44,788 nucleotides of DNA from Acidobacteriota bacterium (GCA_040755995.1 JBFMAF010000026.1:1-44788); one strand, 5' to 3'; shown: positions 27,134 through 44,788, numbered from the stretch's first letter. Notes: generated by a model not told the origin, from the letters alone. A program made the numbers and translations.

Positions 27134-29395
27134 ATGGTGGCGATTGAGGCTACGATGTTCACCAGTAGATGGCTTGTGCTCGGCATCGTTCTGCCGGCCG
27201 TCGCGATGCGGATGGCGGGAGCGGAGCCTGTCAAGGTCCCGGGTACCTGGACGTGGGACAACCACAGCGGCTCCTGTGAGCTCACAATCGATGGCACATC
27301 GATCAAGGGCAAGTTCAGCGTCAGGTACGAGATCAAGCCCCCGACGCCGGGCCAACCCGGCGCCATTGTGGTCGGCGGAGAAGAGTTCGCCGTCTCCGGA
27401 GAGCTCGACGGCAAGCTCAACCCTCAGACCAACGAGGTGAACGGGACAGTCAGCGGAACCTGGAGCTACGAAGGCTACCCGCCTGGTCGCCAAAGCCCAT
27501 TTCCGCTCGGACGATCTGCTCCGTTCAGCGGCTCCTTCGCAGGCAACCTCGACGGCAACACCATCTCCGGAACATGGCGTGCAGAGGTCTCGGGAGAGAG
27601 CTACTCGGACTACCCGCAAGTCCCGCCTACCATCGCGGGCACCCTGGGCGCGCAGTCCGCGTCGAGACCTCCTCAGTGCCCGGAGGGCTACAACTTCTAT
27701 ACTCGGGAAGACCTCGAAGGCTACTACACCGGCAAGCCCTCGCTGCTCTTCTCCCGCGAGCAGCTTACGAAGGAGATGGTCTCGGCTCTGCAACGATTCA
27801 AATCCGAAGGAGGCACGCCGCAGAGCGGAGTCGGCTGGCTCGAGGCGAAGGATATCGCGCGCGAGATGGCGACAAGGGCCCTGCCGACGGGCAAGGAGGC
27901 CGAGTTGAAAGCGGCCGCCCAGGCGGCGGCGAGCTCGGGCAAACGATTGTCTCCCGGGGATCTGTTCTACCTGGCTCTCAAGGTCAACGGCGGAAACGTG
28001 AAGAACGCGCTCTTGACCAGCCACGCAGTTCTCTACAGGGATGCCGGGAAGAAGAACAGCCAGTTCATCAAGGACACGCTGCTTCCGATGCGCGATCCCG
28101 AAGGCTACTCCGAGAAGCTGATCAAGGTGGGCAACCAACAACGCTCGGTGCGAAGTGTGGTCGGGGATGATCAGCAGGGAGTCTGGTACCACTTCTTCGG
28201 CATGGCGGCGGTCGAGTTCTCCGACTACAATGGCGCTACCGGAATGGCTCCGATGTGGGCAGTCCGCATGGGGGCGGAGAACGCCGACGGTGTGTTCGCA
28301 TCCCTGGCCAAGCGGATCAAGAACGTTCCCGCAAGCGGCCTGGGCGGAAACCTGGCGGATTTCTCGATCGCTCTCGAGAACGAATTCCGCAAGGACGGGT
28401 CGGCGCCCGACCCCGACAAGCAGTGCGTCAACTACTCGGGCATTGCCGCCGGCCGCGCGCTGGCCAAGGAGCTGGAACCCAAGGCCAATCCGGCCGTGAC
28501 TGCCTACCAGGACAGGAGGCTCGAGGAGTACAGGATCCGTGGTGTGGTGATCGAGAAATCGCCGTTGTCCATGGAGATCATCGGGACCAGCGGCGAGCGC
28601 TTCGCCTTCGATCAGCGGCACAAGCGTTTCTCCGGCAACACGCCATTTGTGCTCTTCGAACCGCTTGACGAGCCGGACGGGACATGGGGGCTCATAGTCG
28701 CGCCTCTGTTCCCCGTACGGAGCATCGCATTCGCTGGAACCGGCACAGGCGATGCCACGGTCGGCTTCCACAACCTGGACCGCAGCACCACGGGAGTCTA
28801 CCAGGTGCCGATCACCGATGGCACCACGGTCGTACTCGAAGGGTGGGACTCCAGTCCGGTCCTGAGGGTGAACGGACAGCCGGTCGAGCCGGTGGGGGCC
28901 GAGGTCGCTGCCGAGCCTGAGGACAGGCCCGATGCGATCCCTGCGCCTCGACCGCCCGCCGCGGTGGGGGCGCACGAGGCCGCTCGCGACGGCCGCCTCG
29001 TGGCATACGACGACGGCACGGTGCTGGACACCGAGAGCGGATTGATGTGGGCGGCGAAGGACAACGGCGCGAATATCAAGTGGGACGCAGCCACCGCGTA
29101 TTGCGCAAGCTTCAGAGCAGGAGGGCACTCGGACTGGCGGATGCCGACTACAGCCGAGCTGCGCAGCATCTATGACGACAGCCGAAAGGGATACAGATGC
29201 GCCTGCCGCAAGTACCTTCCGCTGCTTGGCGCATATGACCACGTGCTCGTGACGCCGCTGATCCAGTTGAGCTGTGACTGGGTGTGGGGCGGGCCGACCC
29301 CCATGATGTTCGGCTTCAACTGCGGGGAGGAGAAGCGGGGGGACCGAAAATTCGCCGCCGGTATGCGTGTGCTCCCGGTCCGCTCCACCAGGTGA
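27134..29395 (+). CDS. exported multidomain protein with C-terminal DUF1566 (Lcl) domain
   Basis: Signal peptide; DDGTVLDTESGLMW...WDAATAYC...GGHSDWRMPTTAELRSI...VLPVR is the DUF1566 signature. Confidence 0.82.
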   Translation: MVAIEATMFTSRWLVLGIVLPAVAMRMAGAEPVKVPGTWTWDNHSGSCELTIDGTSIKGKFSVRYEIKPPTPGQPGAIVVGGEEFAVSGELDGKLNPQTNEVNGTVSGTWSYEGYPPGRQSPFPLGRSAPFSGSFAGNLDGNTISGTWRAEVSGESYSDYPQVPPTIAGTLGAQSASRPPQCPEGYNFYTREDLEGYYTGKPSLLFSREQLTKEMVSALQRFKSEGGTPQSGVGWLEAKDIAREMATRALPTGKEAELKAAAQAAASSGKRLSPGDLFYLALKVNGGNVKNALLTSHAVLYRDAGKKNSQFIKDTLLPMRDPEGYSEKLIKVGNQQRSVRSVVGDDQQGVWYHFFGMAAVEFSDYNGATGMAPMWAVRMGAENADGVFASLAKRIKNVPASGLGGNLADFSIALENEFRKDGSAPDPDKQCVNYSGIAAGRALAKELEPKANPAVTAYQDRRLEEYRIRGVVIEKSPLSMEIIGTSGERFAFDQRHKRFSGNTPFVLFEPLDEPDGTWGLIVAPLFPVRSIAFAGTGTGDATVGFHNLDRSTTGVYQVPITDGTTVVLEGWDSSPVLRVNGQPVEPVGAEVAAEPEDRPDAIPAPRPPAAVGAHEAARDGRLVAYDDGTVLDTESGLMWAAKDNGANIKWDAATAYCASFRAGGHSDWRMPTTAELRSIYDDSRKGYRCACRKYLPLLGAYDHVLVTPLIQLSCDWVWGGPTPMMFGFNCGEEKRGDRKFAAGMRVLPVRSTR

Positions 29396-29396
29396 A
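29238..29396 (+). repeat. direct repeat copy 1 (3' end of DUF1566 gene)
   Basis: Manual alignment with 31447-31606: 19 substitutions and one 1-bp indel over ~160 bp. Confidence 0.9.
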
Positions 29397-29411: not shown

Positions 29412-29447
29412 CACTTCGCAGTATCAAAGCCGCGGCCCCATTGAGGC
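29412..29447 (+). CRISPR. solitary degenerate CRISPR repeat 1
   Basis: CACTTCGCAGTATCAAAGCCGCGGCCCCATTGAGGC matches the array repeat at 30/36. Confidence 0.85.
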
Positions 29448-29759: not shown

Positions 29760-30512
29760 GTGACGGGCAATGGGCCGAGGTCCGGCGAGGGGCCGGGCTC
29801 AAGCGGACAGCCGACTACTCCTGAGCGGGATCTATCGCCGGCCCCGCCTCCGCCGAGGTCATGGGAAGACGTCCTCAGCGCACAGCGCCTCCTGCAAGCA
29901 AGATTCCCAGATTGCGTGCTGGTAGGCGGCACCGCTGCCGCCCTCCACGCAAAGCACCGAGCGTCCTGGGACGGAGATCACGTCCTCATCGACCTCAAAG
30001 ACCGCTACGAAAAGATACTCCACGACCTTGAGCATGAGGCGGGGTGGATCACCAAGCGCAGAACGCCGCCGGTCCAAATCCTCGGACACTTCCACGGCGT
30101 CGAGACCGGAATTCGGCAACTGATCAGAAGCCGCCCCTTGGAGACAGTTGTGGTCGATGGCATCACCATCCCGACACTTGCAGAGATGGCGCGAATCAAA
30201 GGATGGCTCATCGTACGACGCAACGCGACCCGCGACTTCCTCGACTTCGTTGCACTATGCGACAAGTTGCAGGGCGAAGCCGCCGGCATCTTGCCTGCCC
30301 TTGAAGATCTCGATTCCTACTACCCGCAAGACCAAGGGGAATCCACGTTACGCCAACTCAGTCGCCAACTGTGCGAACCAAAGCCATGGGATCTTGATCG
30401 CGTGGACTTGCAGCTGTACAAAGAGCTAAGAGGGCCGTACAGAGATTGGAGCTACGTTCAGGCGCGGTGTCAAGAAGTCGCAGTGTCGTTAATGAAAGAA
30501 GCATTACGATGA
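29760..30512 (+). CDS. nucleotidyltransferase, AbiEii/AbiGii-like toxin family
   Basis: VLVGGTAAALHAKHRASWDGD (GG(T/S)...HRxSxDxD) and K...RNATRDFLD motifs; AGGAG before GTG. Confidence 0.8.
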   Translation: MTGNGPRSGEGPGSSGQPTTPERDLSPAPPPPRSWEDVLSAQRLLQARFPDCVLVGGTAAALHAKHRASWDGDHVLIDLKDRYEKILHDLEHEAGWITKRRTPPVQILGHFHGVETGIRQLIRSRPLETVVVDGITIPTLAEMARIKGWLIVRRNATRDFLDFVALCDKLQGEAAGILPALEDLDSYYPQDQGESTLRQLSRQLCEPKPWDLDRVDLQLYKELRGPYRDWSYVQARCQEVAVSLMKEALR

Positions 30513-30745
30513 TCCACCGGCATCTTGATTCAGGCTTCGAAGACAGCCCTGCTGCGATCGAAGATGTCCTGGAACGAGGAACACTTGATGATTGGAAGGA
30601 GCTCGCCGCCAAGGTGAGACGCGACCCTTTCGGGCGCGAGGCCATGGCACTGAGGACGGTACTAGACAACACCCATCTCTACGGAACGACGACACTCTGG
30701 AACCTACTGCTGGCTGAGTGGCGAGAAGGACGCGACCCAGGCTAG
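30509..30745 (+). CDS. small putative antitoxin partner (78 aa)
   Basis: ATGA overlap with the toxin stop. AAIEDVLERGTLDDWKELAAKVRRDPFG resembles partners I recall next to this NTase family (not searched). Confidence 0.65.
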   Translation: MIHRHLDSGFEDSPAAIEDVLERGTLDDWKELAAKVRRDPFGREAMALRTVLDNTHLYGTTTLWNLLLAEWREGRDPG

Positions 30746-30938
30746 CCGGCCCAGACGTAGCGGGCGGGCGTGCTCGGACGCGGCGCGGTTTGCGGCGACG
30801 GCGGAGACACGTCTCCGGCGAAACGCACGATCTGCGCCTTCAGCGCGCCCTTCACGGCTTCATCCGCCAATTGGCGCCCACCGCCCTTATTCTGGTACAG
30901 GCGTGACCATGGCAGGCCGGCGCGTTCATTGGGGAACT

Positions 30939-30974
30939 GATTCCGCGGCATCACAGCTGCGGCGCCATTGAAGC
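30939..30974 (+). CRISPR. solitary CRISPR repeat 2 (putative crRNA-like regulatory RNA)
   Basis: GATTCCGCGGCATCACAGCTGCGGCGCCATTGAAGC matches the array repeat at 33/36; hairpin and ATTGAAGC handle preserved; preceded by GAACT, as is array repeat 1. Confidence 0.9.
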
Positions 30975-31446
30975 TGTTCCTGATGCATGCCTTGACGTCA
31001 CTACAAATCGTCGCTACAGAGGGTAGTGGCGTCTCGCGGGATGAGGTCGGGGATCAACTCTTTCCTTCATCTACACGGAAAGAGTTGGAGTGGCCGTCAC
31101 CCGAGTCGAATCCGCGATCCCGGCAAGAATCCCGCGAAGTTGGAGAGAAGTGAGCTCATCGTGCGACCCCCGCGTGGCAACCGCGTGCGGAGCTACATCG
31201 ACACCGTTGCACCGGATGGGATCAGGGACGGCGAGGTATTGCGGCGGCTCAAGACGTTCCTCGATCATTCCCAGAGGCGCGAAATGCCTTGGGACGGCAT
31301 CGAAGGACCGTGCCGATTCCGCATTTGGATCGATCCGGAGTTCGCCAGGGAATGGCTGCGCGAGGCGGCAATTCTTTGGGACGTGGCCCGGTCACTATGG
31401 AGGCCGAGCGCCTGAAGAACGAGCAAGCTCCCACTCTGATCGTCAC

Positions 31447-31606
31447 ACCACGTGCTCGTGACGCCGCTGATCCAGTTGGTATGTGACCGGGTATGGGGCG
31501 GGCCGACGCCAATGATCCTCGGCTTCAACCGCGGGGAGCAGAAGAGGGGGCCACCGAAAATTCGCCGTCGGCACGCGGGTGCCCTCGGTCCGCTCCACCA
31601 GGTGAA
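31447..31606 (+). repeat. direct repeat copy 2 (frameshifted copy of the DUF1566 gene 3' end)
   Basis: ~88% identical to 29238-29396, with a 1-bp insertion. Confidence 0.9.
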
Positions 31607-31807
31607 CTACGCCCGCGCTGGCGAGCTGCCGTGGCAGCGGCACGGCGGCACGGCGGCACGGCGGCAGCGCACCTTACCGACTCGCCCTACCACTGGGGTA
31701 AAATTTCAACCGGTTCTCAGGCGGTGCGAACTGCCCATGGCGAGGTCAAGCGGTCGCCACGGTGCCTTGGGGTCGAGCCAGCGCGGATCAGACATCAGGA
31801 GGCTACT

Positions 31808-32059
31808 ATGTGCCACCTACAGTTAGATGTTCCGGAAGCAGTCCTGCGCTCTCTCAAGGGGAGTGAGGAGGAGTTCGCGCGCGAGCTCAGAATTGTCGCA
31901 GCGGTCAAGCTCTTGGAATTGAGAAAACTGTCGTCGGGCAGGGCAGCCCAACTTGCGGGCCTATCGCGCGTCGAGTTCCTGATGTCGCTCGGCAGGTACC
32001 ACGTGTCGCCTTTCACGCAGAGCAGTTCGGAGCTGGACCGAGATGCCCGGAACGCCTGA
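31808..32059 (+). CDS. UPF0175-family protein (putative antitoxin)
   Basis: ARELRIVAAVKLLELRKLSSGRAAQLAGLSRVEFL motif; AGGAGG before ATG. Confidence 0.85.
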   Translation: MCHLQLDVPEAVLRSLKGSEEEFARELRIVAAVKLLELRKLSSGRAAQLAGLSRVEFLMSLGRYHVSPFTQSSSELDRDARNA

Positions 32060-32090
32060 CAGAATAGTCGTCGTAAACACCCCACGATGG
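32052..32090 (+). pseudogene. remnant of a DUF3368/PIN toxin N-terminus
   Basis: ACG CCT GAC AGA ATA GTC GTC GTA AAC ACC = (M>T)PDRIVVVNT, overlapping the UPF0175 stop where such partners usually start; similarity is lost afterwards. Confidence 0.45.
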
Positions 32091-32436
32091 TACAGACGCA
32101 CCCGTGCCTCTGAATCAGCGCGATCCTGCTGACGGCCGCACGGCTCCCCACAGCCGGTAGCGCAGCCCGGCGCGGCGCACGATGCGCCGGGAGACAGCTT
32201 CTACGAGCACCTCGCGCGGGCCCCGGCGTTCGGCGCGCTTGCGCTCGCGAGTCATCACGCGCGTCGGCTCGACGGTAAATCAGTGGAACAGATTCCCCGA
32301 AGATGCGAATGGCGCGCTTCTGTGCTAGGATCGCGGTCGTATCCAGGACGAGTCTTCCGTGGCATTGACGCCATCGGGCTCCGCGGATGTGGTTCACTCC
32401 CGCCGCCGGCGCTCGTGAGAGGGGAGGACCCCTGAG

Positions 32437-33501
32437 GTGGAACTCAAGAGAATCGCGCCTTCTGCTCCGAGTGGCCGAGGGACACGCCGCATTCTGGATT
32501 CAGTCATTCACATCGACCGGCGGCTGCGATCAGGGAGTTGCCTGCCGCTTGCTACGCTCGCCAATGAGCTCGAGGCGAGCAAGCGGACGGTCCAGCGCTA
32601 CGTCGAGTTCCTGCGAGACCGTGTGGATGCGCCGGTCGAGTTCGACCGGCGTCGCCGCGGATACCGCTACACGGACGAGAGGTTCGTTGTCCCGGCGGTG
32701 GCGCTGAGCGAGGGCGAGCTGATCGCGCTCTATGTTGCCGGACCGGTCCTGCTCCGGTATCGCGGCACGGAATTCGGCCGCCGGATCGAGACGGCTTTCA
32801 GGAAGATCGAGCAGTATCTGCCGGATCGCGTACGGCTGCATCTGCTCCCGATCGAGGAACGGATCGGTGGGAAAGCGAACGATGTCGCTTCACGAGACGA
32901 GATCGAGCGATTCGACCTGCTGGTGAAGGCGACCCTGAGCGATCGGCGGCTCCGCATTGACTACTACTCGGCCCACAGAGGCGCCGAGGAGGAGCGCGAG
33001 GTCGACCCGTATGCGCTTCGGTTCGTGAACGGGGAGTGGTATCTCATCGGCTTCTGCCACACGCGTGGTAGCGTGCTCACGTTCCACGTTGGGCGCGTAC
33101 GCGCGGCGGCGGAAACGGGTGATGGCTTCTTGCGCCCGGCCGGCTTCAGCGCAGATGCGTACCTAGCCGACGCCTTCGGCGTCTTTCGGGACCCCCGCAT
33201 CGGGTCCGGCGCGGGTGACACTGTCACTCGCGAGGTACTGCTGAAGTTCGACGCCTTCGCCGCGCGATTCGTGCGCGAGCACGAGTGGCACGAATCGCAG
33301 AGCATAGCTGAGCGGCCCGACGGCTCGATCGAGCTGCGTATGCGGGTGACGGGCATGGTAGAGGTAGAGCGCTTCGTACTAGCCTGGGGCGAGCACGCTG
33401 AGGTACTGCACCCCGCCGACCTGCGCACCCGCGTTGCCTCCCGCCTCAGAGCCGCCGGGACCCAATATCGCGACGTTTTTCGGAACGACGACACGTTTTG
33501 A
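32437..33501 (+). CDS. WYL-domain transcriptional regulator (HTH-WYL-WCX)
   Basis: LANELEASKRTVQRYVEFLRD HTH; REVDPYAL...WYLIGFC...TFHVGRV; FVLAWGEHAEVLHPADLR. Confidence 0.93.
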   Translation: MELKRIAPSAPSGRGTRRILDSVIHIDRRLRSGSCLPLATLANELEASKRTVQRYVEFLRDRVDAPVEFDRRRRGYRYTDERFVVPAVALSEGELIALYVAGPVLLRYRGTEFGRRIETAFRKIEQYLPDRVRLHLLPIEERIGGKANDVASRDEIERFDLLVKATLSDRRLRIDYYSAHRGAEEEREVDPYALRFVNGEWYLIGFCHTRGSVLTFHVGRVRAAAETGDGFLRPAGFSADAYLADAFGVFRDPRIGSGAGDTVTREVLLKFDAFAARFVREHEWHESQSIAERPDGSIELRMRVTGMVEVERFVLAWGEHAEVLHPADLRTRVASRLRAAGTQYRDVFRNDDTF

Positions 33502-33543
33502 CGCTGGACTGGCATATGTTCGTGATGGAGGCGCTTTCATCCG

Positions 33544-36366
33544 ATGAGTAATGAAGCAGGATCACCATCCGTGTCGAAAGATGCAGAACGATTTCGGGAA
33601 TGGTTTGAGACGGCCACGGGATTCGTCCCATATCCGTACCAGGAGCGATTGGCACTTGATCAGGACTTCCCAGGACTCTTGGATGTGCACACGGGGCTCG
33701 GCAAGACCGAGGGCGTGTTTCTTGCGTGGGTTTGGAGGAGGAAGGAAGCCGGCGAAGAAGTGAAGAAGATGACGCCCCGCCGGCTCGTGTACTGTCTCCC
33801 GATGCGTGTGCTTGTGGAGCAGACAGCTGAAAGAATCAGGAAGATGCTATCGAACTTGGGATTGCTGGCCGGGAGTGACGGGCATAGTCGAGCAGAGCCG
33901 GTGGTGGTGAACCGCATGGCAGTGACGGTACTGTTGGGCGGTGAGGACGAGGATGAGTGGTATCTGTGGCCACATCGTGACGCGGTTCTCGTTGGCACGC
34001 AAGACATGCTGTTATCTCGGGCCCTGAACCGCGGTTATGCCATGAATCACTATCGCTGGCCGATTCAGTTCGGACTCCTGAATAACGATTGCATGTGGGT
34101 CATGGACGAAGTGCAGCTCATGGGTAGTGGTCTGGTAACAACGTGCCAACTCGATGCATTCCGCGCAGGGCTGTGGCAACCCCTACTTCCGTGCCGATCT
34201 ATCTGGATGTCAGCGACCTTGGGTGGCAATGTGCTCCATACCAGGGATCGCCGTGACCTGAAGACTCCCGAACCCGCACGATTCAGTCTGAAGGACAGCA
34301 CGCTTGACCTGCAATCCGGGGCGATCAGCCAACGGCTGGCCGCGGCCAAGACTGTGAGCCTTCTCAATAACAGGCCGGAGGCGTGGAATGGCCGCCATAC
34401 GGGCATCACTGACTTGCACTCAGCCGGTCGCATCAGCCTGATCGTGTTGAATACCGTGAAAGCCGCCCAGGACTTCTACAGAGAACTCAAGCAGGCACTC
34501 GATGAAATGAGATGTCGGGACGAGACCGACCGGGAACCGGTGCTGGTGCTGCTGCACGGTCGCCTGAGACCGCGTGAACGAGGCGAGAGGCTCAGGTGTC
34601 TGCAGGATTTTCTGAGTCGCCAGGACAAGGCAACTGCATCCGTTGCTGATCATCCCGGCCTGGTGGTCGTGGCAACGCAGGTCATTGAAGCTGGTTTCGA
34701 CCTGTCTGCGGCTCGCTTGTGGAGTGAGATCGCACCCTGGGCCTCTGTAGTCCAGCGGCTCGGCCGGCTCAACCGTGAAGGTAAGCAGCCCGATGCCACC
34801 GCCACATTCTGGATGCCCGAATCGGATCCCGAAAGAGACGAATCGAGCCCCAACTACAAGCGCATCGGGCCATATGACAGAGAAGATCTCAAGGTCGCCT
34901 ACCATCTCATATCGGATGTCACATCGATGCTGAAGCAAGGCATGAGGTACCGCGACGCGATGGACAGTGTGTGCGCCACCAAGAAGGCCCAGGAAGCACT
35001 GGATATGGAGGCGGAGTCGGTGATTCGGCCCGACGACGTATACGGGTTGTTTTCCACAGAACCGGACCTGGCTGGAGGGTTCACGGACATCTCTCTATAC
35101 GTCCGCGATCAAGACCGGGAGCCGGACGTGCATGTGTTCTGGCGCGACATCCCGAGGCGGAAGCACCCAGCGGACCACGAGCCAGGCCCGGTTCGAGATG
35201 AAGTTGTTGCGGTTCCATTCTACTCGGTGTGCAATTTCCTTGGGACGTCAGGTTACGCCTGGGAATGGAACTTCGAGACGAGTCGCTGGGACCGTCGGCA
35301 CGCTGGAGAGATATTCCCCGGAATGACGATCATGCTCGCTCGCTCCTGCGGTGGCTACTCGGAAGAGCTCGGGTGGACGGGCAAAGAGTGTGACCAGCCG
35401 CCTCCAGTCGTAGCCGCCAGGGTGGGCCAGCCATTCGCAAACGGATGCGCCGTGTCGGACGGACTCTACCGGGAGATCTATAGCGAGACAGAATGGGGAA
35501 CACTCCAGGAGCACCTCGAAGACACCCATTCCGAGACGAGCGAGACCCTCAGAGAGATCGGCGTGCTTGACCCGAAGCTCAGGACTGCACTGATCACCGC
35601 TGCGAGGTGGCACGATTGGGGCAAGTCGCTCGCGCGATGGCAGGCTGCCATAACGAAATACCTGGACGATCTCGGTCACCAAGTGCGCCTCATTCGAGAA
35701 GACGCTCAATTCGCTACAATGTACAGCGTTCTGAGTCGGATCAGTATGAAGCTGGTCCCTCCTCGCACGGGGCCCGAACTCTGGGCCAAGTTCCCTGACG
35801 TTCGGCGCGTCTGGGGCGATCCGACGATTGGCTCCGAGGGCCGAGACGAGGCCAAGAACCTGCTGACTGCGCGCTTCAGACCACGCCTTCGCCATGAGGC
35901 CGCGAGCGCCTTGGGGGCATGGAAGGCCTGGAGGCAGGGCCAACCTGGTCTCACCGCCTTGGCGGTCTACCTGATCGGTAGCCATCATGGCAAGGTTAGA
36001 ACTGTACTTCGCAGTACGCAGGATACGGACGAGGTTTTTGGACTCACGCCAGAGGATTGCCTGCAGCCCGTTCCAGGCCATATCGACAGCAATACATCTC
36101 TTACATTCACCCCGAAGCTTGTGGGAGCTGCCGGGAGTTGGAACGGCGAGACCGACTTCCGTGTGGAGTCGGAGTCATGGATCGCGATGGTCTCGGAGCT
36201 TCTCGGAGGACCCGATCCGCTAACACCTGCACAACACCTGGCGATTCCAGACGGAGAACCGCGTGACCTCGGACCCTTCAAGTTGGCATTCCTCGAGGCA
36301 CTACTGTGCGCGGCAGACATGCGGGCCAGCAAGTGGCCCAGGAGGGAACGTGCAAGTGACAGCTAG
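33544..36366 (+). CDS. cas3: type I-G Cas3 (helicase with C-terminal HD nuclease)
   Basis: TGLGKT, PRRLVYCLPMRVLVEQ, DEVQLM, SAT, ATQVIEAG and QRLGRLNR helicase motifs; C-terminal HDWGK, RHE, SHHG and ADMRAS. Confidence 0.95.
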   Translation: MSNEAGSPSVSKDAERFREWFETATGFVPYPYQERLALDQDFPGLLDVHTGLGKTEGVFLAWVWRRKEAGEEVKKMTPRRLVYCLPMRVLVEQTAERIRKMLSNLGLLAGSDGHSRAEPVVVNRMAVTVLLGGEDEDEWYLWPHRDAVLVGTQDMLLSRALNRGYAMNHYRWPIQFGLLNNDCMWVMDEVQLMGSGLVTTCQLDAFRAGLWQPLLPCRSIWMSATLGGNVLHTRDRRDLKTPEPARFSLKDSTLDLQSGAISQRLAAAKTVSLLNNRPEAWNGRHTGITDLHSAGRISLIVLNTVKAAQDFYRELKQALDEMRCRDETDREPVLVLLHGRLRPRERGERLRCLQDFLSRQDKATASVADHPGLVVVATQVIEAGFDLSAARLWSEIAPWASVVQRLGRLNREGKQPDATATFWMPESDPERDESSPNYKRIGPYDREDLKVAYHLISDVTSMLKQGMRYRDAMDSVCATKKAQEALDMEAESVIRPDDVYGLFSTEPDLAGGFTDISLYVRDQDREPDVHVFWRDIPRRKHPADHEPGPVRDEVVAVPFYSVCNFLGTSGYAWEWNFETSRWDRRHAGEIFPGMTIMLARSCGGYSEELGWTGKECDQPPPVVAARVGQPFANGCAVSDGLYREIYSETEWGTLQEHLEDTHSETSETLREIGVLDPKLRTALITAARWHDWGKSLARWQAAITKYLDDLGHQVRLIREDAQFATMYSVLSRISMKLVPPRTGPELWAKFPDVRRVWGDPTIGSEGRDEAKNLLTARFRPRLRHEAASALGAWKAWRQGQPGLTALAVYLIGSHHGKVRTVLRSTQDTDEVFGLTPEDCLQPVPGHIDSNTSLTFTPKLVGAAGSWNGETDFRVESESWIAMVSELLGGPDPLTPAQHLAIPDGEPRDLGPFKLAFLEALLCAADMRASKWPRRERASDS

Positions 36367-38392
36367 CCTTCAGGCACTCCACTGCCCTGGCATAAATACC
36401 GACAGCCTCGGCCACTACTTGTGTGGACTGGGTCTCGTTTCTGCTCTCGCACCTGAATGGGCGGATCTTCGTTGCTGTTGGCGTGAGGGCCATTTCGTTC
36501 TCCTTCGCAGTGGCATCGCGTTAGATCATGTGTTGGCGTGTCTGCGAAGCAAGTGGAAGCCGACACAGTACTCGCGATGGTGGGTCAGCGCTCAGAAGAA
36601 CGATACGAAGGCAAGGACCTCCACCAACATTCGTTCTGAGCGGAACGTACGAAGCATGGAGGAAGTCCGCCTGCTCGACGCCCATATGGTAACGGCACGC
36701 CGGAACCGGTTCAATCCCATCTTGGGCACAGGCGGGAATGTCGGAAAGAGGGACCTGGCCAAGTTGTGGAAAGACGCCTGCAGACTGGCGAGAGGCAGCG
36801 GAAGCGATGCGTGGCTGAAGGGCACGTTGACGGGGGAGTACGATCAGGAGCTTCCTGACCTGAGCAGCGGGGGAACGTGGTTCGTCTTCGCCAACAAGAC
36901 CTTCAACAGTGGTCAGGGGTGGTACCGAGAAGGACGTATTTCGCCATGGTCTGTGCTGTTCGCGATGGAGGGTGCCCTGATGTTGATCGGCGAGACCAGC
37001 CGACGTCTGGGATCTCGATCGCGGCCATACGCTGCGTTTCCGTTCGTCTCCGACCCAGCGCAGCCGGTGGCACCAGGCGAGATTGGCTTGGCGGAGGCCG
37101 AGTTTTGGGCACCGCTATGGGAAGCCCCTGCCACTCTTGCGGAAATCAGGTCCCTCTTCCAGCGCGGGCTCGCACGAATCGGCGGACGCGCCGCACAAGC
37201 GCCGCACGAGTTCGCTATCGCTGCTCGTGCCGTTGGGGTCGACGCGGGGGTCACCGAGTTCGTGCGCTATGAGCTTCGACAGACCACGAGTTCACAAGTC
37301 TACGAGGCGATTCCTCGCGCTCATGTGGCTGTACCCAGAACCCGGCGCCCACCCGGTGCTGGAACTGGTCGGGAGAGTGATGCTGAGCTGCTCGTTCGGC
37401 TGGTGGAGTCCGGCTGGCTCGATCGCCTCCCATACGAACCTCGAGATCCTAAGAAGAGAGGTAGGTTCAAGGGGCTGCGGGGTCCGGTCGAGGCCGCCAT
37501 CATTCGGGTCGGAGAAGATCCAGGGGATCCGGGGCGTTGGGGGGAACTCCTCCTGACACTGGCCAGAGTCCAAGCTCGAATCGATCGTAACAAGACCCTG
37601 CGTGATCGCTGTGCCCCACTGCCCAGGCTCAGTACTGGTTGGTTCGACCGCATCTGGCCAGCGAATCACTCGCCCGAGACGATCATGGCCCGCTCTATCG
37701 CATCCATCGGTGCTCGCAGCGACGCTCCAATGCTTGTGAATGTCTACGGTGTGCAGGTAAAGGACAGTAGGTACATCCACTTCCCTCAATCGCGTCCACA
37801 ACGGGCTGTTTGGCATTCCGGACAGCCTCTGCGCGCGCTGTTCGACGTTATTCATAGACGGCTCCTCGACGCCGCAGTTACAGACGTTGTTCCTCTGGAT
37901 GCAACTTGCCCATGTCCTGCAAGCCTCGTGTACGCCTTCCTAGATCGTGACGAACAGATCCAAGTTGATCGGGTGTGTGCGTGGATTCCTGCGCTGTCAC
38001 TCCTGGACTGGTCCAGATCGGGCCCGGGCATGCCGTCCGGCGTGATGCGGTCTCCACCGGCCGATGGCACACACTTGTTGCACTCGCTGTTCAAACCCTT
38101 CTTCCACCCACGTGCTGTGCAAGTGCTTGGCCGTTCTACCCGAAACTGCCAACCTCGCGCCGGGCTCTCTCGATCGCTGCTCCACCTCATCCAATATGGA
38201 CACTTGGAGGAGGCGTTTCAGCTCGTACGCAACTGGTACCTCGCGGTCGGCTCAGACATCGTGCTTCCTCCGCCTGATCTGGCGACGGACGGTGAGCGAC
38301 TCGCAGCCGCCTTGTTGATGCCGATGCAAGATCGCGACGTGGAACGCGGTCTGCTACGCTGGCTTCAACCAACCAAGAGTTCGATAGATTAA
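36356..38392 (+). CDS. csx17: type I-G large subunit Csx17 (Cas8g)
   Basis: SLGHYLCGLGL, FNPILGTGGN, SPW..LFAMEGAL, AAFPF and EFWAPLW motifs; lies between cas3 and cas7; GTG start overlaps the cas3 end. Confidence 0.85.
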   Translation: MTASLQALHCPGINTDSLGHYLCGLGLVSALAPEWADLRCCWREGHFVLLRSGIALDHVLACLRSKWKPTQYSRWWVSAQKNDTKARTSTNIRSERNVRSMEEVRLLDAHMVTARRNRFNPILGTGGNVGKRDLAKLWKDACRLARGSGSDAWLKGTLTGEYDQELPDLSSGGTWFVFANKTFNSGQGWYREGRISPWSVLFAMEGALMLIGETSRRLGSRSRPYAAFPFVSDPAQPVAPGEIGLAEAEFWAPLWEAPATLAEIRSLFQRGLARIGGRAAQAPHEFAIAARAVGVDAGVTEFVRYELRQTTSSQVYEAIPRAHVAVPRTRRPPGAGTGRESDAELLVRLVESGWLDRLPYEPRDPKKRGRFKGLRGPVEAAIIRVGEDPGDPGRWGELLLTLARVQARIDRNKTLRDRCAPLPRLSTGWFDRIWPANHSPETIMARSIASIGARSDAPMLVNVYGVQVKDSRYIHFPQSRPQRAVWHSGQPLRALFDVIHRRLLDAAVTDVVPLDATCPCPASLVYAFLDRDEQIQVDRVCAWIPALSLLDWSRSGPGMPSGVMRSPPADGTHLLHSLFKPFFHPRAVQVLGRSTRNCQPRAGLSRSLLHLIQYGHLEEAFQLVRNWYLAVGSDIVLPPPDLATDGERLAAALLMPMQDRDVERGLLRWLQPTKSSID

Positions 38393-38411
38393 CACCAGAA
38401 GAGGAGGATTC

Positions 38412-39524
38412 ATGACAGAACCCGACAGGAATCAGGATCAGCTCCGTCAGGCACTGAGTCCCGACGGGCCAGCATGTGCGGTTATCAAAGCTCGCTTCAC
38501 ACCGGTAGGCGAGTTGGGCCGGTTCCAACCGGCAGGATTCCCGGAGATAGGACATGTGATCTATGACCGACCAAGGAAGGACGGTGGCACGGAGAAAGTG
38601 TGCATCGTCGATAGCGCCGCGAGTATGGCCAACCACCTAGAAGCCATATGTGTCGCGAGTCCTACGGAGTTGCATGAAGCTCTACATGGGCTCCCTTATG
38701 TGGTCTGCGTGACCGACAGCGATGGATCGCCGAGCCCGGACCGCGTTGTCACCACGAGCCTGAGCGAGGGCCACCGCATTGCATCAGACTATTTCCTTGA
38801 TGCTCGGCCATTGTGTAACGGCCAGCCGGATCAAGAGAAGTTACGCGAGAGGCTGCGGCGCGAGTTCGGGATTATCGAGGTCAAGAAAGACAAGACCTAC
38901 TTTATCCCGCCGGAGACCTGGTGGTCGATATACAAGACCATCTTCAAGTACGATCCGAACTCTCTGGTGCACGGCGTCATGTTCGCACGAGAGCAGATCA
39001 AGATCAGTCGGCTGCTGACGGGGCATTTCGAGGCTCATGGGGCAGCACGGGTGGGACGTTCCGGCGTCAAGTTCGACCGGCTTGGCAAGACCACGTCAGG
39101 CCAGCCCATTTTCTCGGTCGATGAGGAGACAGCCCATGAGATTCGCGCCACGTTCGTCTTAGACCTCGCTCTCCTACGTTCTTACGGGCGGGGGGACAAC
39201 GGCCTCGGCGAGAAGCACAAGAAGCTCCTGCTGGACCTGTCACTCTGGAAAGTCTCGCAATTGGCGGCGAGCCCGTTTCGTTTCCGGAGTGGTTGTCATC
39301 TCCAATGCGAGGGGTTGGAATGGTCCACGGACATCCATCCCTCAGCCCACCTGGTGCTCCCGACAGTGGATATCGCTGATTCCATCAGGCAGTGCGCCTT
39401 CGCTGAGGGGCCGGTGACGCGTGTCTACTACCCAGCCAAAGAGCTGTTCACACCGCCCAGGGAAGAGGGGTCCGGTGAAGACCGCGAGGAGGCTGGTGAC
39501 GAAGATGAGGATTCAGAGGGTTGA
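38412..39524 (+). CDS. csb1: type I-G Cas7 (Csb1/GSU0053)
   Basis: RFQPAGFPEIG, VDSAASMANHLE, EGHRIAS and DPNSLVHGV motifs. Confidence 0.9.
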   Translation: MTEPDRNQDQLRQALSPDGPACAVIKARFTPVGELGRFQPAGFPEIGHVIYDRPRKDGGTEKVCIVDSAASMANHLEAICVASPTELHEALHGLPYVVCVTDSDGSPSPDRVVTTSLSEGHRIASDYFLDARPLCNGQPDQEKLRERLRREFGIIEVKKDKTYFIPPETWWSIYKTIFKYDPNSLVHGVMFAREQIKISRLLTGHFEAHGAARVGRSGVKFDRLGKTTSGQPIFSVDEETAHEIRATFVLDLALLRSYGRGDNGLGEKHKKLLLDLSLWKVSQLAASPFRFRSGCHLQCEGLEWSTDIHPSAHLVLPTVDIADSIRQCAFAEGPVTRVYYPAKELFTPPREEGSGEDREEAGDEDEDSEG

Positions 39525-39527
39525 GCC

Positions 39528-41084
39528 ATGCCGCTACTCATTGCTCAGCAGTTCCCGCTCGGGAGGTTCCACGCGACCCGCTGGAACCAGAATCCCTTCG
39601 AAGATCCGCACGGCGAGTGGCCACCCTCACCCTGGCGTTTCCTGAGAGCGTTGGCTGCTCGGTGGTTCCAGTACAGCCGTGAGACAGGCGACGCGGATAG
39701 CGCTCGGCGGGACGAGTTGCTGAAAGCCCTGGCGCGCGAAGTCCCCGCGTTCCAGATACCAGATGTGACCTCGCGCGGACCTGCCATTCGCCAGTACCAC
39801 CCTACGGGTCTTGAGCGCCGGTACAAGTACAAGAAGGATCCAAGGACGAACAGAAAGGTTCTGGACTACAACCTCAGACAGACCGTAAAGACGCTGGTGC
39901 GGGATGACGCCCGACTCCTTCCGACAGACCAAGAGATCATCTGGGCCTGGCAGTCAGTGCATCTCGCTGAACCGCTCTTGGACCTGCTCCTGCAATTGCT
40001 CCGTCGTATGATCTATTTCGGCCGGGCCGAGAGCTTCTGCCGTTTCCATGTGCTCGATCAGCCGCCTGAAAACCTGGGAACCAACTGCCACTTGACCGAC
40101 CGGGCTTGTGGGGGTGTGCCCGTGCTCGTTGCCAAACCCAACGTGGAGCTGCGATTGGACGCGCTGTTGGCGGCAACGAGTGACAAGATGAGCGAACGCG
40201 CCATTCCCCAGGGTACAGCCTGGTACTATGCGAAGCTCCCTCCCCGCCCCGGTCATGCAGTAGCAATGACGCCAGAGCCAACAGCCGGTGCCGCATCTGT
40301 GTCGATCCTTCAGTTTGCAGTCGGCGGGCGCGTTTACCCTCCGCTGTCCAAGTGGATAAGATTGACAGAGCGGTTTCGTGGCCGCGTGTTGCGAATTCGG
40401 GCACAGCAGTTGACTGGCGTGTCATCCGCAGGCTACGCGGACCTATCCGATACGCAGCGCCACGAACTGAGGCTGATCAGTGGGAAGGATTGCAGGGGCG
40501 CGGCCATCGCTGGCCACGAACATGCATTCTTCTTGCTGTGGCCCGACGCAAGCGGTTTGCCTACGCGGCTGATTTGTTGGCGAAAGACTCCGTTTCTCCA
40601 GGATGAACTCGAAGCTCTGCTCGCGGCATCTGAGTATCCCTTTTCATGGGGGTTCGGGAACTCTGATTGGCAGGTCCGCATGGTGCCTCTGCCAAACGAA
40701 ACCCCCGCACCGCGGGGTCTTTATGCAGAGGCGAAGACCTGGGTTGGCGCCACCCCGTATGTTCCCCCGGGCAATCGAAGACGCTTTCGGAAGAACGGGA
40801 GGATCCGGTCCGGCGAGACCCCTGATCGTCTCCTGCAGAAGCTCTTGGTAGCCTCGGGGTTTCCGGAACCAGGCGAGATTACGGCGGTCCAGCCGAAGTC
40901 GCAGCCTAACTGGGTTCATGTCCATGAGACACGTAGAGAACGGAGTAGCCGAGGCCTGCATCGTACCACCACTGCACTGCCAGGGTTTTATTTCCGTATC
41001 GTGTTCCCCGAGCCAGTGCGCGGGCCGATCTGCCTTGGGCACTCTTCGCATTTCGGATTGGGACTGTTCATCCCGGGTGCCTGA
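39528..41084 (+). CDS. csb2: type I-G Csb2 (Cas5-Cas6 fusion, GSU0054)
   Basis: FPLGRFHATRW, EWPPSPWRFLRAL, YFGRAES and C-terminal GPICLGHSSHFGLGLF G-rich loop. Confidence 0.92.
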   Translation: MPLLIAQQFPLGRFHATRWNQNPFEDPHGEWPPSPWRFLRALAARWFQYSRETGDADSARRDELLKALAREVPAFQIPDVTSRGPAIRQYHPTGLERRYKYKKDPRTNRKVLDYNLRQTVKTLVRDDARLLPTDQEIIWAWQSVHLAEPLLDLLLQLLRRMIYFGRAESFCRFHVLDQPPENLGTNCHLTDRACGGVPVLVAKPNVELRLDALLAATSDKMSERAIPQGTAWYYAKLPPRPGHAVAMTPEPTAGAASVSILQFAVGGRVYPPLSKWIRLTERFRGRVLRIRAQQLTGVSSAGYADLSDTQRHELRLISGKDCRGAAIAGHEHAFFLLWPDASGLPTRLICWRKTPFLQDELEALLAASEYPFSWGFGNSDWQVRMVPLPNETPAPRGLYAEAKTWVGATPYVPPGNRRRFRKNGRIRSGETPDRLLQKLLVASGFPEPGEITAVQPKSQPNWVHVHETRRERSSRGLHRTTTALPGFYFRIVFPEPVRGPICLGHSSHFGLGLFIPGA

Positions 41085-41217
41085 GCGATCCCGGGACGCT
41101 CTTTGACAACTGAATAGCACGTACGAACCCAAGGTCGGCAGGTGTCAGCGACGCCGGTCGTGCCGGTGAGATGGAACATGACGCGTTAGTGAAATGGCGG
41201 TGCAGGAGGTTGAAGGT

Positions 41218-42948
41218 ATGGTACGCGAACAGATGGATGGTGGTGAGGGCGCGAAGCGGGAAGGTGAAATACTGTTTCGTTCCCCGGCGCAGGATCTGAT
41301 CCCGGCGCGCATCCTGAACGAGTACGTGTACTGCCCGCGGCTGGCCTACCTCGAATGGGTGCAGGCGGAGTTCGAGGATTCCGCAGACACCATCGAGGGT
41401 CGGCACCAGCACCGGAGGGTGGATGCCGGTGGGCCGTTGCTCCCCGAGCCGGAAGAGGGCGAGGCGGAGAGCATTCACGCGCGATCGGTGATGCTCTCCG
41501 CCGATGACCCCGGGATCATCGCGCGAATGGACCTTGTTGAAGCGGAGGGCGCCAATGCCACACCGGTCGATTACAAACACGGGCGCAAGCCGGACCGGCC
41601 CGAGGGAGCGTGGGACACAGACCTCGTTCAGATCGCGGCGCAGGCCGTCGTGCTGCGTGCCAACGGCTACCAATGCGACAGAGGCGTCATCTACTACATC
41701 GCCTCCAAAACCAGAGTGGATGTTGAAATCGACAGCGGACTGATCGAGAAGGTCAGAGATGTCTGCCGCGATCTCAGGGAGATGGCGCGGGCTCGGGTGA
41801 TCCCTGCTCCGCTTCGAGACAGCCCGAAGTGCCCGGGCTGCTCGCTGGCCGGCATCTGCCTTCCCGACGAGACGCGATTCCTGGCGCCGGGCACACGGGA
41901 GGAGGAAGAAGAGGAGCCCAGGCGGCTCTATCCGATTCTGCCGGACGCGCTTCCGATGTATGTGCAGGAGCAGGGCGCCGTCGTGGGAAAGCGAGACGAG
42001 GCGCTCGTGGTGAAGGTCAGAGGGCAGGAAGTGGCCGAAGTGCCGTTGCTACAGATCTCCCACTTGGCGCTGTTCGGCAACGTGCAGACAACGACGCAGG
42101 CGTTGCGCGAATTGTGCAGTCGAGGCCAGGCAGTCTGCTACTTCAGTAGCGGAGGATACTTCTACGGAATCACCCACGACATCGGAAGCCGCAACGTGGA
42201 TCTGCGGCGAGCCCAGTTCCGGAAGGCAGACGACCCCGCAGTGTGCCTCGCGCTGGGCCGCAGGATTGCCTGGGCGAAGGTGCGCAACCAAAGGACGCTG
42301 CTCCGCAGGAACTCGACATCGGTCTCAGACCAGGACCTCAGAGATCTCGATCGTCTCGCGGACGCGGCCCGAGCGGCTGAGACCCCGGAGACCCTCCTCG
42401 GCTGTGAGGGCGCAGCCGCGAGAATCTATTTCGGCAACTTCGGTTCGATGTTGAAGACCGGAGACGAGACGAGCGTGGTGTTCCACTTCGACGGCCGCAA
42501 CAGGCGCCCGCCGCGCGACCCGGTCAACGCACTGCTTTCGCTCTGCTACGCCCTTCTGGCGAAGGATTGCACCGTCACTCTGCTCGCCGTCGGATTCGAT
42601 CCATACCTCGGCTTCTACCACACAGCGCACCACGGGCGGCCGTCGCTTGCTCTGGACTTGATGGAGGAGTTCAGGCCGTTGATAGCGGATTCCGTGGTGA
42701 TCACCGTGATCAACAACGGTGAGGTCGGCCCAGGCGACTTCGTTCGCGCCGGGGGCGCCGTCAGTCTGAAGCCCGCTGCGCGGAAGACCTTGATCCAGGC
42801 GTACGAACGTCGAATGGACCAGGCGATTTCGCATCCGGTCTTCGGGTATAAGGCCTCCTACCGGAAGACACTTGAAGTGCAATCCCGGCTCCTCGCGCGA
42901 TACCTTTCCGGCGAGATCTCGGAATGGCCGGCAATACTGCCCAGGTGA
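41218..42948 (+). CDS. cas1: Cas4-Cas1 fusion
   Basis: Cas4 motifs YVYCPR, DYKHG and CPGCSLAGIC; Cas1 motifs EGAAARIYF, RNRRPPRDPVNALLS and LALDLMEEFRP. Alternative start at 41194. Confidence 0.95.
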   Translation: MVREQMDGGEGAKREGEILFRSPAQDLIPARILNEYVYCPRLAYLEWVQAEFEDSADTIEGRHQHRRVDAGGPLLPEPEEGEAESIHARSVMLSADDPGIIARMDLVEAEGANATPVDYKHGRKPDRPEGAWDTDLVQIAAQAVVLRANGYQCDRGVIYYIASKTRVDVEIDSGLIEKVRDVCRDLREMARARVIPAPLRDSPKCPGCSLAGICLPDETRFLAPGTREEEEEEPRRLYPILPDALPMYVQEQGAVVGKRDEALVVKVRGQEVAEVPLLQISHLALFGNVQTTTQALRELCSRGQAVCYFSSGGYFYGITHDIGSRNVDLRRAQFRKADDPAVCLALGRRIAWAKVRNQRTLLRRNSTSVSDQDLRDLDRLADAARAAETPETLLGCEGAAARIYFGNFGSMLKTGDETSVVFHFDGRNRRPPRDPVNALLSLCYALLAKDCTVTLLAVGFDPYLGFYHTAHHGRPSLALDLMEEFRPLIADSVVITVINNGEVGPGDFVRAGGAVSLKPAARKTLIQAYERRMDQAISHPVFGYKASYRKTLEVQSRLLARYLSGEISEWPAILPR

Positions 42949-42966
42949 AGGGCTCGGAGGCAACCA

Positions 42967-43257
42967 TTGAGGAATCGGTATCTCGTCACCTACGACGTCT
43001 GCGACGACAAGCGGTTGAGACTCGTCTTCAAGAAGATGAAGGCATTCGGTCTGCACCTGCAGCTCTCGGTTTTCGAGTGCGAGCTTTCCGGGCGCGAGCT
43101 GGCCATGATGAAAGCAGGGCTCGACGCCCTGATCCACCATGACGAGGACCAGGTTCTGATCGCCGACCTCGGGCCGTCCGACGGGACGGGGCGGGACTGC
43201 ATTGAATGGCTCGGACGCCCGCTCGTCGAACTGTGCAGGAAGGCTGTGGTCTTGTGA
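42967..43257 (+). CDS. cas2: Cas2
   Basis: YLVTYDVCDDKRL...LQLSVFEC; GGAGG before TTG start. Confidence 0.95.
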   Translation: MRNRYLVTYDVCDDKRLRLVFKKMKAFGLHLQLSVFECELSGRELAMMKAGLDALIHHDEDQVLIADLGPSDGTGRDCIEWLGRPLVELCRKAVVL

Positions 43258-43435: not shown

Positions 43436-44788
43436 GATTCCGCAGCATCAAAGCTGCGGCCCCATTGAAGCACTTGACGTGGAGGTGGTTGCGCTCTCGA
43501 TATTCGTGATTCCGCAGCATCAAAGCTGCGGCCCCATTGAAGCAGCAACTCTGCTTGGTACTGCTCCATCTCCTTCTGCGAGATTCCGCAGCATCAAAGC
43601 TGCGGCCCCATTGAAGCTCCTCTTCTGGGGGTGCAGTGGGCGCGGGTGCTGGCGATTCCGCAGCATCAAAGCTGCGGCCCCATTGAAGCTTGCGCAGGCA
43701 GTTCCGGACCCCCGGACCCCCTATGGATTCCGCAGCATCAAAGCTGCGGCCCCATTGAAGCGCCGTGATGGCTACGCTGGACACATTGAGAGAGTAGGAT
43801 TCCGCAGCATCAAAGCTGCGGCCCCATTGAAGCGACCAGTCCCGCAGTACTCGGCGCAGGGCGTCCAGGATTCCGCAGCATCAAAGCTGCGGCCCCATTG
43901 AAGCCGCTATCATGTGCGCCTCCTAAATGCCCGGTCTCATGATTCCGCAGCATCAAAGCTGCGGCCCCATTGAAGCCTGGTCTGGCTCGGCTCGGATGAT
44001 GTCGATGGCACGGATTCCGCAGCATCAAAGCTGCGGCCCCATTGAAGCGACGCCGCCAGCTGGCCTTCTGCCGTGATCTGTATCGATTCCGCAGCATCAA
44101 AGCTGCGGCCTCATTGAAGCTCTTCCTCCATCGTAGCAGCAGCCTTAGCAGCGGCGATTCCGCAGCATCAAAGCTGCGGCCCCATTGAAGCTTGGGTATC
44201 GCAATCAACCGCGAATCGGATTTGATGGGATTCCGCAGCATCAAAGCTGCGGCCCCATTGAAGCATTGCTGGCCCATCCCATGTTGTTAGACCGTAGTGA
44301 GATTCCGCAGCATCAAAGCTGCGGCCCCATTGAAGCGATGAGGCTCGCGCGCTCGCAGTCGTGCAGGTGCGGATTCCGCAGCATCAAAGCTGCGGCCCCA
44401 TTGAAGCATCTTCGCGAAGAAGCTGCCGCCTTCCTTCGTTGTGTGATTCCGCAGCATCAAAGCTGCGGCCCCATTGAAGCGTTGGATTCTACGAGTCGAA
44501 GGGGTGGAGGGTGGGGGCATTCCGCAGCATCAAAGCTGCGGCCCCATTGGAGTCTACCCGCCGGCGGCGATGGCGCGGACGGGAGATCTCATTCCGCAGC
44601 ATCAAAGCTGCGGCCCCATTGAAGCGTAATGGAGGCGATGGGGGAGCCTCGACCACGCTACATTCCGCAGCATCAAAGCTGCGGCCCCATTGAAGCGATA
44701 CTCCTGGCAATGGATACGACCACGGCGATCAGGATTCCGCAGCATCAAAGCTGCGGCCCCATTGAAGCGCCTTCCCGATCTGGGAACT
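43436..44788 (+). CRISPR. CRISPR array: 19 repeats of 36 bp (GATTCCGCAGCATCAAAGCTGCGGCCCCATTGAAGC), 18 full spacers of 35-38 bp, truncated by the window edge
   Basis: Repeats start at 43436, 43508, 43582, 43654, 43726, 43798, 43869, 43941, 44013, 44085, 44156, 44229, 44301, 44372, 44445, 44518, 44590, 44661 and 44733; 7-bp stem CCGCAGC/GCTGCGG; ATTGAAGC 3' end. Confidence 0.99.

Follow-up and report, generated by a model that had tools for sequence, protein, structure and literature searches.

A solitary repeat and a guide-like match before cas3 in an Acidobacteriota type I-G CRISPR locus: a candidate CreR-type pair and its relatives

The 44,788-nt stretch C26:1-44788, a contig segment of the 7.7-Mb draft genome of an Acidobacteriota bacterium (hereafter the window), contains a type I-G CRISPR-Cas locus and, upstream of it, a solitary copy of the array repeat (orphan repeat A) followed by a guide-like sequence that partly matches the gap between a WYL-domain regulator gene and cas3. 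On sequence comparison, it is an evenly balanced question whether this match is a true trace of a guide-target pair of the CreR type (or of the Cracr type of mobile elements), and it is unlikely that the pair still represses cas3 measurably. The window element is probably either a coincidental match or a copy that is weak or dead. CreR-type regulation in type I-G as a subtype looks real, to judge from related loci.

Candidate guide and its match upstream of cas3

The elements concerned, with coordinates counted from the first nucleotide of the window, are:

29412..29447, + strand: orphan repeat B, 30/36 identical to the array repeat (6 mismatches), stem weakened, handle ATTGAGGC
30939..30974, + strand: orphan repeat A (psiR1), GATTCCGCGGCATCACAGCTGCGGCGCCATTGAAGC, 33/36 identical to the array repeat
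30975..30993, + strand: candidate guide (psiS), TGTTCCTGATGCATGCCTT, downstream of repeat A
32437..33501, + strand: WYL-domain regulator gene (HTH_11, WYL and WCX; Pfam)
33514..33516, + strand: 5' flank of the candidate target, ATA, not TTN (direct reading)
33517..33535, + strand: candidate target, in the WYL-cas3 gap, 27 to 9 nt before the cas3 ATG
33544..36366, + strand: cas3 (Cas3 domains; Pfam)

Guide and candidate target were found to agree at 14 of 19 positions (1-5, 7-11, 13, 15, 16 and 19), with mismatches at positions 6, 12, 14, 17 and 18. The mismatches include the flipped positions 6, 12 and 18; type I-G complexes have been reported to show a 5+1 periodicity, with sixth bases flipped out, and an 8-nt handle (PMC9638904). 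The seed is paired at 10 of 10 positions (1-5 and 7-11), and 13 of the 15 non-flipped positions among 1-17 agree. The complementarity is confined to the 5' part (14/19, then 4/17), as it is in the related loci described below, and in this pattern the match is unlike a uniformly decayed self-targeting spacer. Partial, PAM-proximal complementarity (PAM, protospacer-adjacent motif) to a site beside the own cas locus is a mark of CreR RNAs, and it is found here. The target lies within the 42 nt that separate the WYL stop (33501) from the cas3 ATG (33544), and overlaps a GGAGG (33528-33532).

The three changes that separate repeat A from the array repeat are A9>G, A16>C and C26>G. The first, opposite T20, turns a pair of the 7-bp stem into G-U, the second lies in the loop, and the third falls among the four bases that separate the stem from the Csb2 cut site. 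The hairpin (30943-30949 / 30956-30962) forms in the predicted fold, and the ATTGAAGC handle is intact. As in CreR loci, this first repeat derives from the cognate CRISPR and conserves its handle-encoding 3' end. A sequence-only reading of this DNA had given the coordinates of the orphan repeat, the matching positions, the 42-nt gap and the ATA flank, all of which direct reading reproduced. It had also described the three changes as sparing the structure and the match as shaped for Cascade; the fold and the intact handle bear out the former, and the periodicity shown for type I-G (PMC9638904) bears out the latter. Across the whole genome, with up to 11 mismatches allowed, exactly two repeat-like sequences were found outside the array (none for the reversed-pattern control). 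These are repeats A and B; each has the orientation of the cas genes and closely precedes the cas locus.

For the seed pattern TGTTCNTGATG, the window has two occurrences where 0.04 are expected, and the genome has 50; genome-wide the motif is not enriched (50 versus 29 for the reversed control). When matches were scored over the 15 non-flipped positions among guide positions 1-17, the sites other than self numbered 39 among 15.47 million positions genome-wide, four with a score of 14 and 35 with a score of 13. The chance of such a site within the ~220 nt of intergenic DNA upstream of the WYL gene and cas3 (~440 positions) is ~0.001, or 0.002 when two repeats are allowed for. This bears on the first alternative, namely that the orphan repeats are debris left by recombination or mobile insertion and that the 19-nt likeness to the cas3 leader arose by chance. 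The site stands in the one place that the CreR model predicts, the seed is unbroken, mismatches fall on positions 6, 12 and 18, and the changes in repeat A spare the hairpin and handle, all of which speak against coincidence. Coincidence is nevertheless to be taken seriously, if short of probable, on account of points that are gathered further below.

Several other origins of the match were tried and rejected. A coding explanation does not hold, since in the frames that run through the motif neither mismatch 6 nor mismatch 12 falls at a wobble position. For a shared transcription-factor operator, no palindrome or partner half-site was found near either copy. Descent of the guide from an array spacer was considered on the strength of an 8-mer, CTTGACGT, common to the guide and spacer 1, which did not rise above shuffles; nor did a BLAST pairing of repeat B with array unit 7. 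The sequences downstream of A and B showed no significant likeness to any array spacer, and a target search for repeat B found none. Genome-wide, a search for a better TTN-flanked target of the guide returned nothing beyond what chance predicts: sites with low scores, either 51 kb away or on other contigs. An Rfam search of 28500-34000 gave no match.

Guides of the same design in related type I-G loci

A survey of 131 distant type I-G loci was carried out with a hidden Markov model (HMM) of 13 I-G repeats and a handle-anchored scan. The latter is noisy because of repeats (with shuffled handles it listed 0-7 TTN pairs, apart from a single outlying control with 38) and served only for listing candidates. 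A repeat-derived guide with a partial match of ~17 nt in the same locus was found in 13 of the 131 loci, which represent 10 distinct guides: L035/L100, L048, L052, L056, L062, L079, L075, L080, L128, L132/L133 and L140. L035 equals L100 and L132 equals L133, while L062 and L079 share one guide. These loci come from several phyla. The pairing covers 13-15 of the 15 non-flipped positions and mostly ends at about position 17, with mismatches often at 6, 12 and 18; the guides are ~36-41 nt long. In 10 of the 13 loci the guide is aimed upstream of cas3, at a distance of 82-1057 nt from that gene to the target, and in eight of these 10 (six of seven distinct guides) the target is on the cas3-coding strand, as in the window. 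Guide and target co-vary at positions 10, 11, 13 and 16 between L056 and L062/L079. Cross-locus nulls, checked for six loci, gave 0-0.013 such matches expected per locus. Recurrence of the same design in 13 of 131 loci, with co-variation, makes RNA-guided cas regulation in type I-G a sound idea. Four features of the window element fit the grammar of these relatives: its handle, its seed, its strand and its position before cas3.

Closer relatives of the window locus were also sought. No DNA match was obtained in 60 relatives, two of which belong to the same family, and the best identity for Cas3 in genome and metagenome contigs was 51%. One genome, G033, has a similar repeat and a Cas4/1 that is 55% identical, with a different effector module and no orphan repeat. 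The conclusions draw on none of the genomes flagged as unpublished (G025, G048 and G151). A WYL gene stands upstream of cas3 in 20 of the 131 loci.

Some features of individual loci were observed alongside. In L052 (1626-1973) and L080 (9137-9643), the guide target precedes a small sigma-70-like open reading frame (ORF) directly before cas3. The L080 ORF matches Sigma70_r4_2 (E 5e-7), whereas the L052 ORF gives sub-threshold matches only; this arrangement hints at a sigma-factor layer under RNA-guided control. Three Verrucomicrobiota loci carry a conserved mini-CRISPR ~5 kb downstream of the cas3 start (L056:15291-15440, L062:14841-14990 and L079:15723-15872). Its first repeat is highly degenerate and has the handle CTTGAAGC, its guide begins TGATG, and its second repeat is well kept. 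The guide matches a TTN-flanked site 77 nt off, on the opposite strand. A palindromic element of ~24 nt, AGTAGCACAGGCTGCCAGCCTGTG, which resembles repetitive extragenic palindromic (REP) elements, occurs at least five times in L079:10336-17037, including directly after the second repeat of the mini-CRISPR.

What weighs against a working pair in the window?

The following observations, taken together, weigh against reading the window element as a working, or even a genuine, guide-target pair. The first concerns the flank. In the related loci the target flank is TTN in 13 of 13 cases (TTA, TTC, TTG and TTT), though TT makes up 2-8% of dinucleotides there, whereas the window target is flanked by ATA and so lacks the interference PAM that CreR targets have. 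For the Geobacter type I-U system, the interference PAM was reported to be TTN, with TTA, TTT, TTC and TTG active and AGC inactive (PMC6547450). The genome itself supplies one datum. Spacer 27 of the type I-G array and a spacer of a second array, on contig C28, share 20 nt in opposite orientations (C28 ~97930-102390 and L025:413-451), and joining the two spacers gives the flanks TTT for type I-G and GTG for the other system. On account of this overlap, both CRISPR systems appear to hold memory of the same invader site, and TTT is the one PAM datum for the type I-G system of this genome. Other searches for protospacers added nothing to it: spacers 1-18 against 50,697 phage records (blastn) gave weak matches only (E >= 1); exact 20-24-nt cores of four spacers gave no matches in IMG/VR; the array against 400 genomes of the phylum gave only repeats of other arrays and two gapped matches that failed; and a BLAST of the array against its own genome gave only the spacer-27 overlap. 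ATA as a PAM finds no support in the 13 related pairs or in the TTT datum; the sequence-only reading had itself noted that ATA is not the TTN reported for some type I-G systems.

The second observation is that a second repeat with a hairpin follows the guide in all 11 distinct related loci inspected, whereas none was recognised in the 150 nt downstream in the window (alignment score 12 versus a shuffle mean of 14.3; no nhmmer match at E<=1000). In CreR loci a second, often degenerate, repeat keeps the 3' hairpin, and Csb2 has been reported to stay on the 3' hairpin (PMC9638904), which here a second repeat would supply. An 11-bp hairpin (GACGTCACTAC / GTAGTGGCGTC; 30994..31033, + strand) appears in the fold; it starts inside the candidate guide and is not repeat-like. 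A 7-bp hairpin at 31011-31029 was examined as a second repeat, having two apparently compensatory pairs, and was rejected; it competes with the longer 11-bp hairpin and shows no significant likeness to the repeat. Separately, a perfect 11-bp hairpin, CAACTCTTTCC ... GGAAAGAGTTG, lies at 31055-31087, 80 nt 3' of repeat A, with no T-run. The 181-nt region folds better than 200 of 200 shuffles (z = -3.4). In the ATA flank and the absence of a second repeat, the window element departs from its relatives in two respects in which no relative departs. These two departures lead us to read the pair as a weakened or defunct version.

The third group of observations concerns chance, location and expression. 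At the genome-wide rate of 2.5e-6 per position, ~0.2 sites of equal quality are expected in the window. Of 503 real array spacers from the related loci and the window, 49 were found to reach at least 13/15 somewhere in their own locus, and five of 18 do so in the window. A score of 13/15 is thus common by chance, and what lends the match weight is its location and its unbroken seed rather than its score. None of these 49 chance matches has a TTN flank, so that in its non-TTN flank the window match resembles them and not the 13 true pairs. Repeat A diverges from the array repeat by 8%, close to the 12% of a neutral-looking duplicated fragment nearby, and purifying selection is therefore not indicated. 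It lies 2.5 kb from its target, in a separate insert bracketed by a duplication, whereas guide and target are 77-830 nt apart in the relatives. Orphan units without a guide-type TTN target were found repeatedly: L035/L100 at 568, L051, L066 (two), L145 (two), L113 (two) and repeat B of the window. The best match of the L100 unit (13/15, flanked by TGG) appears to be a duplicated copy and not a match of the seed type. Coincidence gains from repeat B being targetless, and from the other orphan units without a second repeat being targetless as well. A look-up for 30700-33800 returned no sequencing run. A scan of 30500-33700 with consensus promoters gave no promoters, for either the repeat or cas3.

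This last result touches a further claim, that the target covers a putative -10 element and the GGAGG. The sequences are all present (TTGACG at 33498, 17 nt, CGTGAT at 33521, and GGAGG at 33528), and to that extent the claim stands. The -10 was not called by the scan, and it conflicts with use of the GGAGG: a transcript from a CGTGAT -10 would start past the GGAGG, and hence a site covering both the -10 and the ribosome-binding site (RBS) cannot matter on both counts.

A fully functional host autorepressor, one that still acts today although its target is flanked by ATA and it has no second repeat, would be a special case of a genuine pair, and we regard it as unlikely. It draws on the evidence for a genuine pair given above and on the diversity of related systems. 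The type I-G system of Bifidobacterium uses TAT/TAC (TAN) (PMC9335239), and PAMs are therefore not uniform across the subtype; only TTN and AGC were tested in Geobacter (PMC6547450); and Psi-R2 is reported to be hard to recognise in some V-A CreRs (10.1101/2023.03.10.532045). However, the flank is TTN in every one of the 13 related pairs, a second repeat is present in all those inspected, the datum of this genome is TTT, and Csb2 was reported to bind the 3' hairpin (PMC9638904).

Genomic setting and the possibility of a mobile-element origin

The cas genes and the array, downstream of the WYL gene, are:

33544..43257, + strand: cas operon of cas3, cas8g1/csx17, cas7 (GSU0053), csb2, a cas4-cas1 fusion and cas2 (Pfam, NCBIfam)
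43436..44788, + strand: CRISPR array, 19 repeats in the window

The complete type I-G locus spans 32437 to the window end on the + strand. The array extends to contig position 46533, with 42 repeats in total and an N gap at 44789-44888; its repeat ends 3' in ATTGAAGC and has the + orientation, the same as the cas genes. The equivalog models for Cas8g1/Csx17 (TIGR04113, 324 bits; cut-off 150) and for Csb2 (TIGR02165, 154.5 bits; cut-off 45) were matched. PF09617 and the Cas3 domains were found by Pfam, and PF01867 and PF01930 lie within one ORF, as expected of a Cas4-Cas1 fusion. The locus thus has Cas8g1/Csx17, Csb2 (a Cas5-Cas6 fusion), a GSU0053-family Cas7, Cas3 and the Cas4-Cas1 fusion that mark type I-G, the subtype to which the sequence-only reading had assigned it. 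A second CRISPR locus is present in the genome on contig C28 at ~97930-102390 (L173:9930-14390), where a long array on the minus strand, with a 37-nt repeat ending ATTGAAAC, lies beside cas4/1, cas6 and cas3 genes.

The surroundings of the orphan repeats include the following features:

29238..29396, + strand: 3' end of an Lcl_C-domain gene (gene 27134-29395), with a copy at 31447-31606 that is 88% identical
29760..30512, + strand: AbiEii/AbiGii-family toxin homologue (tblastn 51% identity, E 3e-59, to annotated plasmid genes; Pfam match weak)
30931..30938, + strand: the 8 nt upstream of repeat A, GGGGAACT, 7/8 identical to the true leader end, GGTGAACT
31788..32081: UPF0175 antitoxin gene (Pfam), with an 82% identical copy at contig C32:267494-267787
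32115..32254, + strand: recD fragment of 140 nt, 76% identical to the 3' end of intact recD at contig 50193-50332 (L174:3794-3933)

The last ~160 nt of the Lcl_C gene are directly duplicated and bracket a 2.2-kb segment (29397-31446), which contains both orphan repeats and the AbiEii gene. The recD duplication implies that the cas island (~32255-50192, ~18 kb) is itself bracketed, with orphan repeats A and B outside it. From the WYL gene to the array, and then on through a metallophosphoesterase, an ECF (extracytoplasmic function) sigma factor and two unknown ORFs, the island resembles an element inserted in the 3' end of recD; no integrase was observed there. The 2.2-kb segment looks like a second, younger insertion, since its duplication is less diverged (88% versus 76%). 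A 29-codon ORF (32043-32132) follows the UPF0175 gene; we take it to be the N-terminal remnant of the PIN-type partner of this antitoxin. With the AbiEii homologue and the UPF0175 gene, the earlier description of the repeat as lying in a toxin-antitoxin (TA) island is confirmed. The local alignment of the leader-repeat junction with repeat A spans 44 nt with four mismatches, and repeat A appears to be a copy of that junction, because seven of its eight upstream nucleotides are shared with the last eight of the true leader. Both this origin and the enclosure of the two repeats in a segment bracketed by an 88% direct duplication fit debris and coincidence. If the pair is genuine, it was probably disrupted by the rearrangements that placed the repeat in the separate 2.2-kb insert.

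The same setting raises the alternative of an anti-CRISPR RNA brought by a mobile element. Under this alternative, the segment is the remnant of an insert with repeat mimics, serving either as Racr-like decoys of Csb2/Cas7 or as a Cracr-like guide that shuts down cas3, and the ATA flank could be a host escape mutation. It is suggested by the two solitary repeats in a duplication-bracketed insert adjoining, and outside, the cas island, by the plasmid-type AbiEii homologue, and by the later arrival of the insert relative to the island. Racrs were described as solitary repeats on viruses (PMC10651486), and 10 of the first 11 guide positions match, enough to reach the threshold, 9 or more PAM-proximal pairs, by which Cracrs were told from Racrs (10.1101/2024.10.29.618823). 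However, the insert contains no integrase, phage or plasmid genes, its base composition is the same as that of its surroundings, and no other copy of it was found in the genome. A Cracr also needs a PAM, and type I-G is not among the types listed for Cracrs in section 7 of that preprint (10.1101/2024.10.29.618823). A mobile-element origin is improbable. ATA is one substitution from TTA, the flank in three related loci, and a more specific version can be formulated, in which the remnant brought a type I-G Cracr against the host cas3 leader and the host escaped by a T-to-A change of the PAM (TTA to ATA); this we regard as very improbable. If it were true, the locus would be a fossil left by an arms race at the RNA level, with no earlier case in type I-G.

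Proposed mechanism and its significance

For a genuine pair, the mechanism would be as follows. A transcript through 30939-30974 would be cut by Csb2 four nt past the hairpin, which would leave an RNA beginning ATTGAAGC-TGTTCC. This RNA would be loaded on Cas7 and Cas8g, and its first three 5-nt segments would pair with the template strand at 33517-33533, with every sixth base flipped out. The resulting short R-loop would park Cascade on the cas3 ribosome-binding region without licensing cutting by Cas3, and the parked Cascade would block RNA polymerase, whether it arrives from the WYL gene or starts at a local promoter. Whereas the sequences, their statistics and the pattern in relatives are observed, transcription, processing, loading, binding and repression are all inferred. 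The proposal that Csb2 processes this RNA and that Cascade represses the cas operon is partly supported: the design recurs in relatives, with co-variation, and the window copy, with ATA and no second repeat, deviates from it.

Should the pair be active, a type I-G Cascade, whose Csb2 normally remains on the 3' hairpin, could use a guide from a single repeat and could bind beside a non-TTN flank, which would broaden the definition of a regulatory guide. It would also add a second layer of control beside the WYL regulator. The mechanism is published for types I-B, I-E and V-A and predicted for I-U/I-G, and is thus not a new principle.

Comparison with known systems

CreR RNAs have been demonstrated for types I-B, I-E and V-A, and creA-like elements were found manually for I-U, the old name of I-G (10.1101/2023.03.10.532045). 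Like a CreR, the window element has a repeat from the cognate CRISPR with a conserved handle, pairs only by its PAM-proximal part near the start of an effector gene, and lies beside the cas locus; for both, the expected outcome is autorepression without cleavage, in the window copy by analogy. Unlike a CreR, it has no second repeat, and the flank of its target is not the PAM of the system. In addition, the target lies in the 5' leader/RBS region, 27 nt from the ATG, rather than in a mapped promoter, and the guide is 2.5 kb away, with the WYL gene and TA remnants between. The window element is, at best, an atypical member of this known CreR-like kind.

Viral Cracrs have been reported for types V-A, I-F, I-E, I-C and I-B (10.1101/2024.10.29.618823). 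The window element resembles Racrs and Cracrs in that its repeat mimic is solitary, lies outside the cas island on a possibly mobile insert, and is followed by at least nine PAM-proximal matches to a cas regulatory region. It differs in that its carrier is not demonstrably mobile and the PAM is absent, and in belonging to type I-G, outside the Cracr types listed in section 7 of that source.

Among 235 type I-G loci, a fraction of 0.46 was reported to have standalone repeat-like sequences and 0.04 to have mini-arrays (Shmakov et al., PMC10120712). The window element is likewise intergenic, by the cas locus, and its spacer-like sequence shows partial complementarity to DNA upstream of a cas gene. 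Of the two classes, it falls into the common standalone one, present in 46% of I-G loci, and not into that of the mini-arrays, for which a regulatory role has been argued.

The closest comparison is with the mini-CRISPRs of the 13 related type I-G loci, with which the window element shares the subtype, the handle, pairing over about three 5-nt segments and mismatches at 6, 12 and 18. A WYL gene occurs in only one of these 13 (L079), whose guide does not aim at cas3. The main value of the window locus is at present comparative: the 13 loci, with their TTN flank, pairing over ~17 nt and second repeat, provide a yardstick for type I-G, against which the window copy falls short on two counts.

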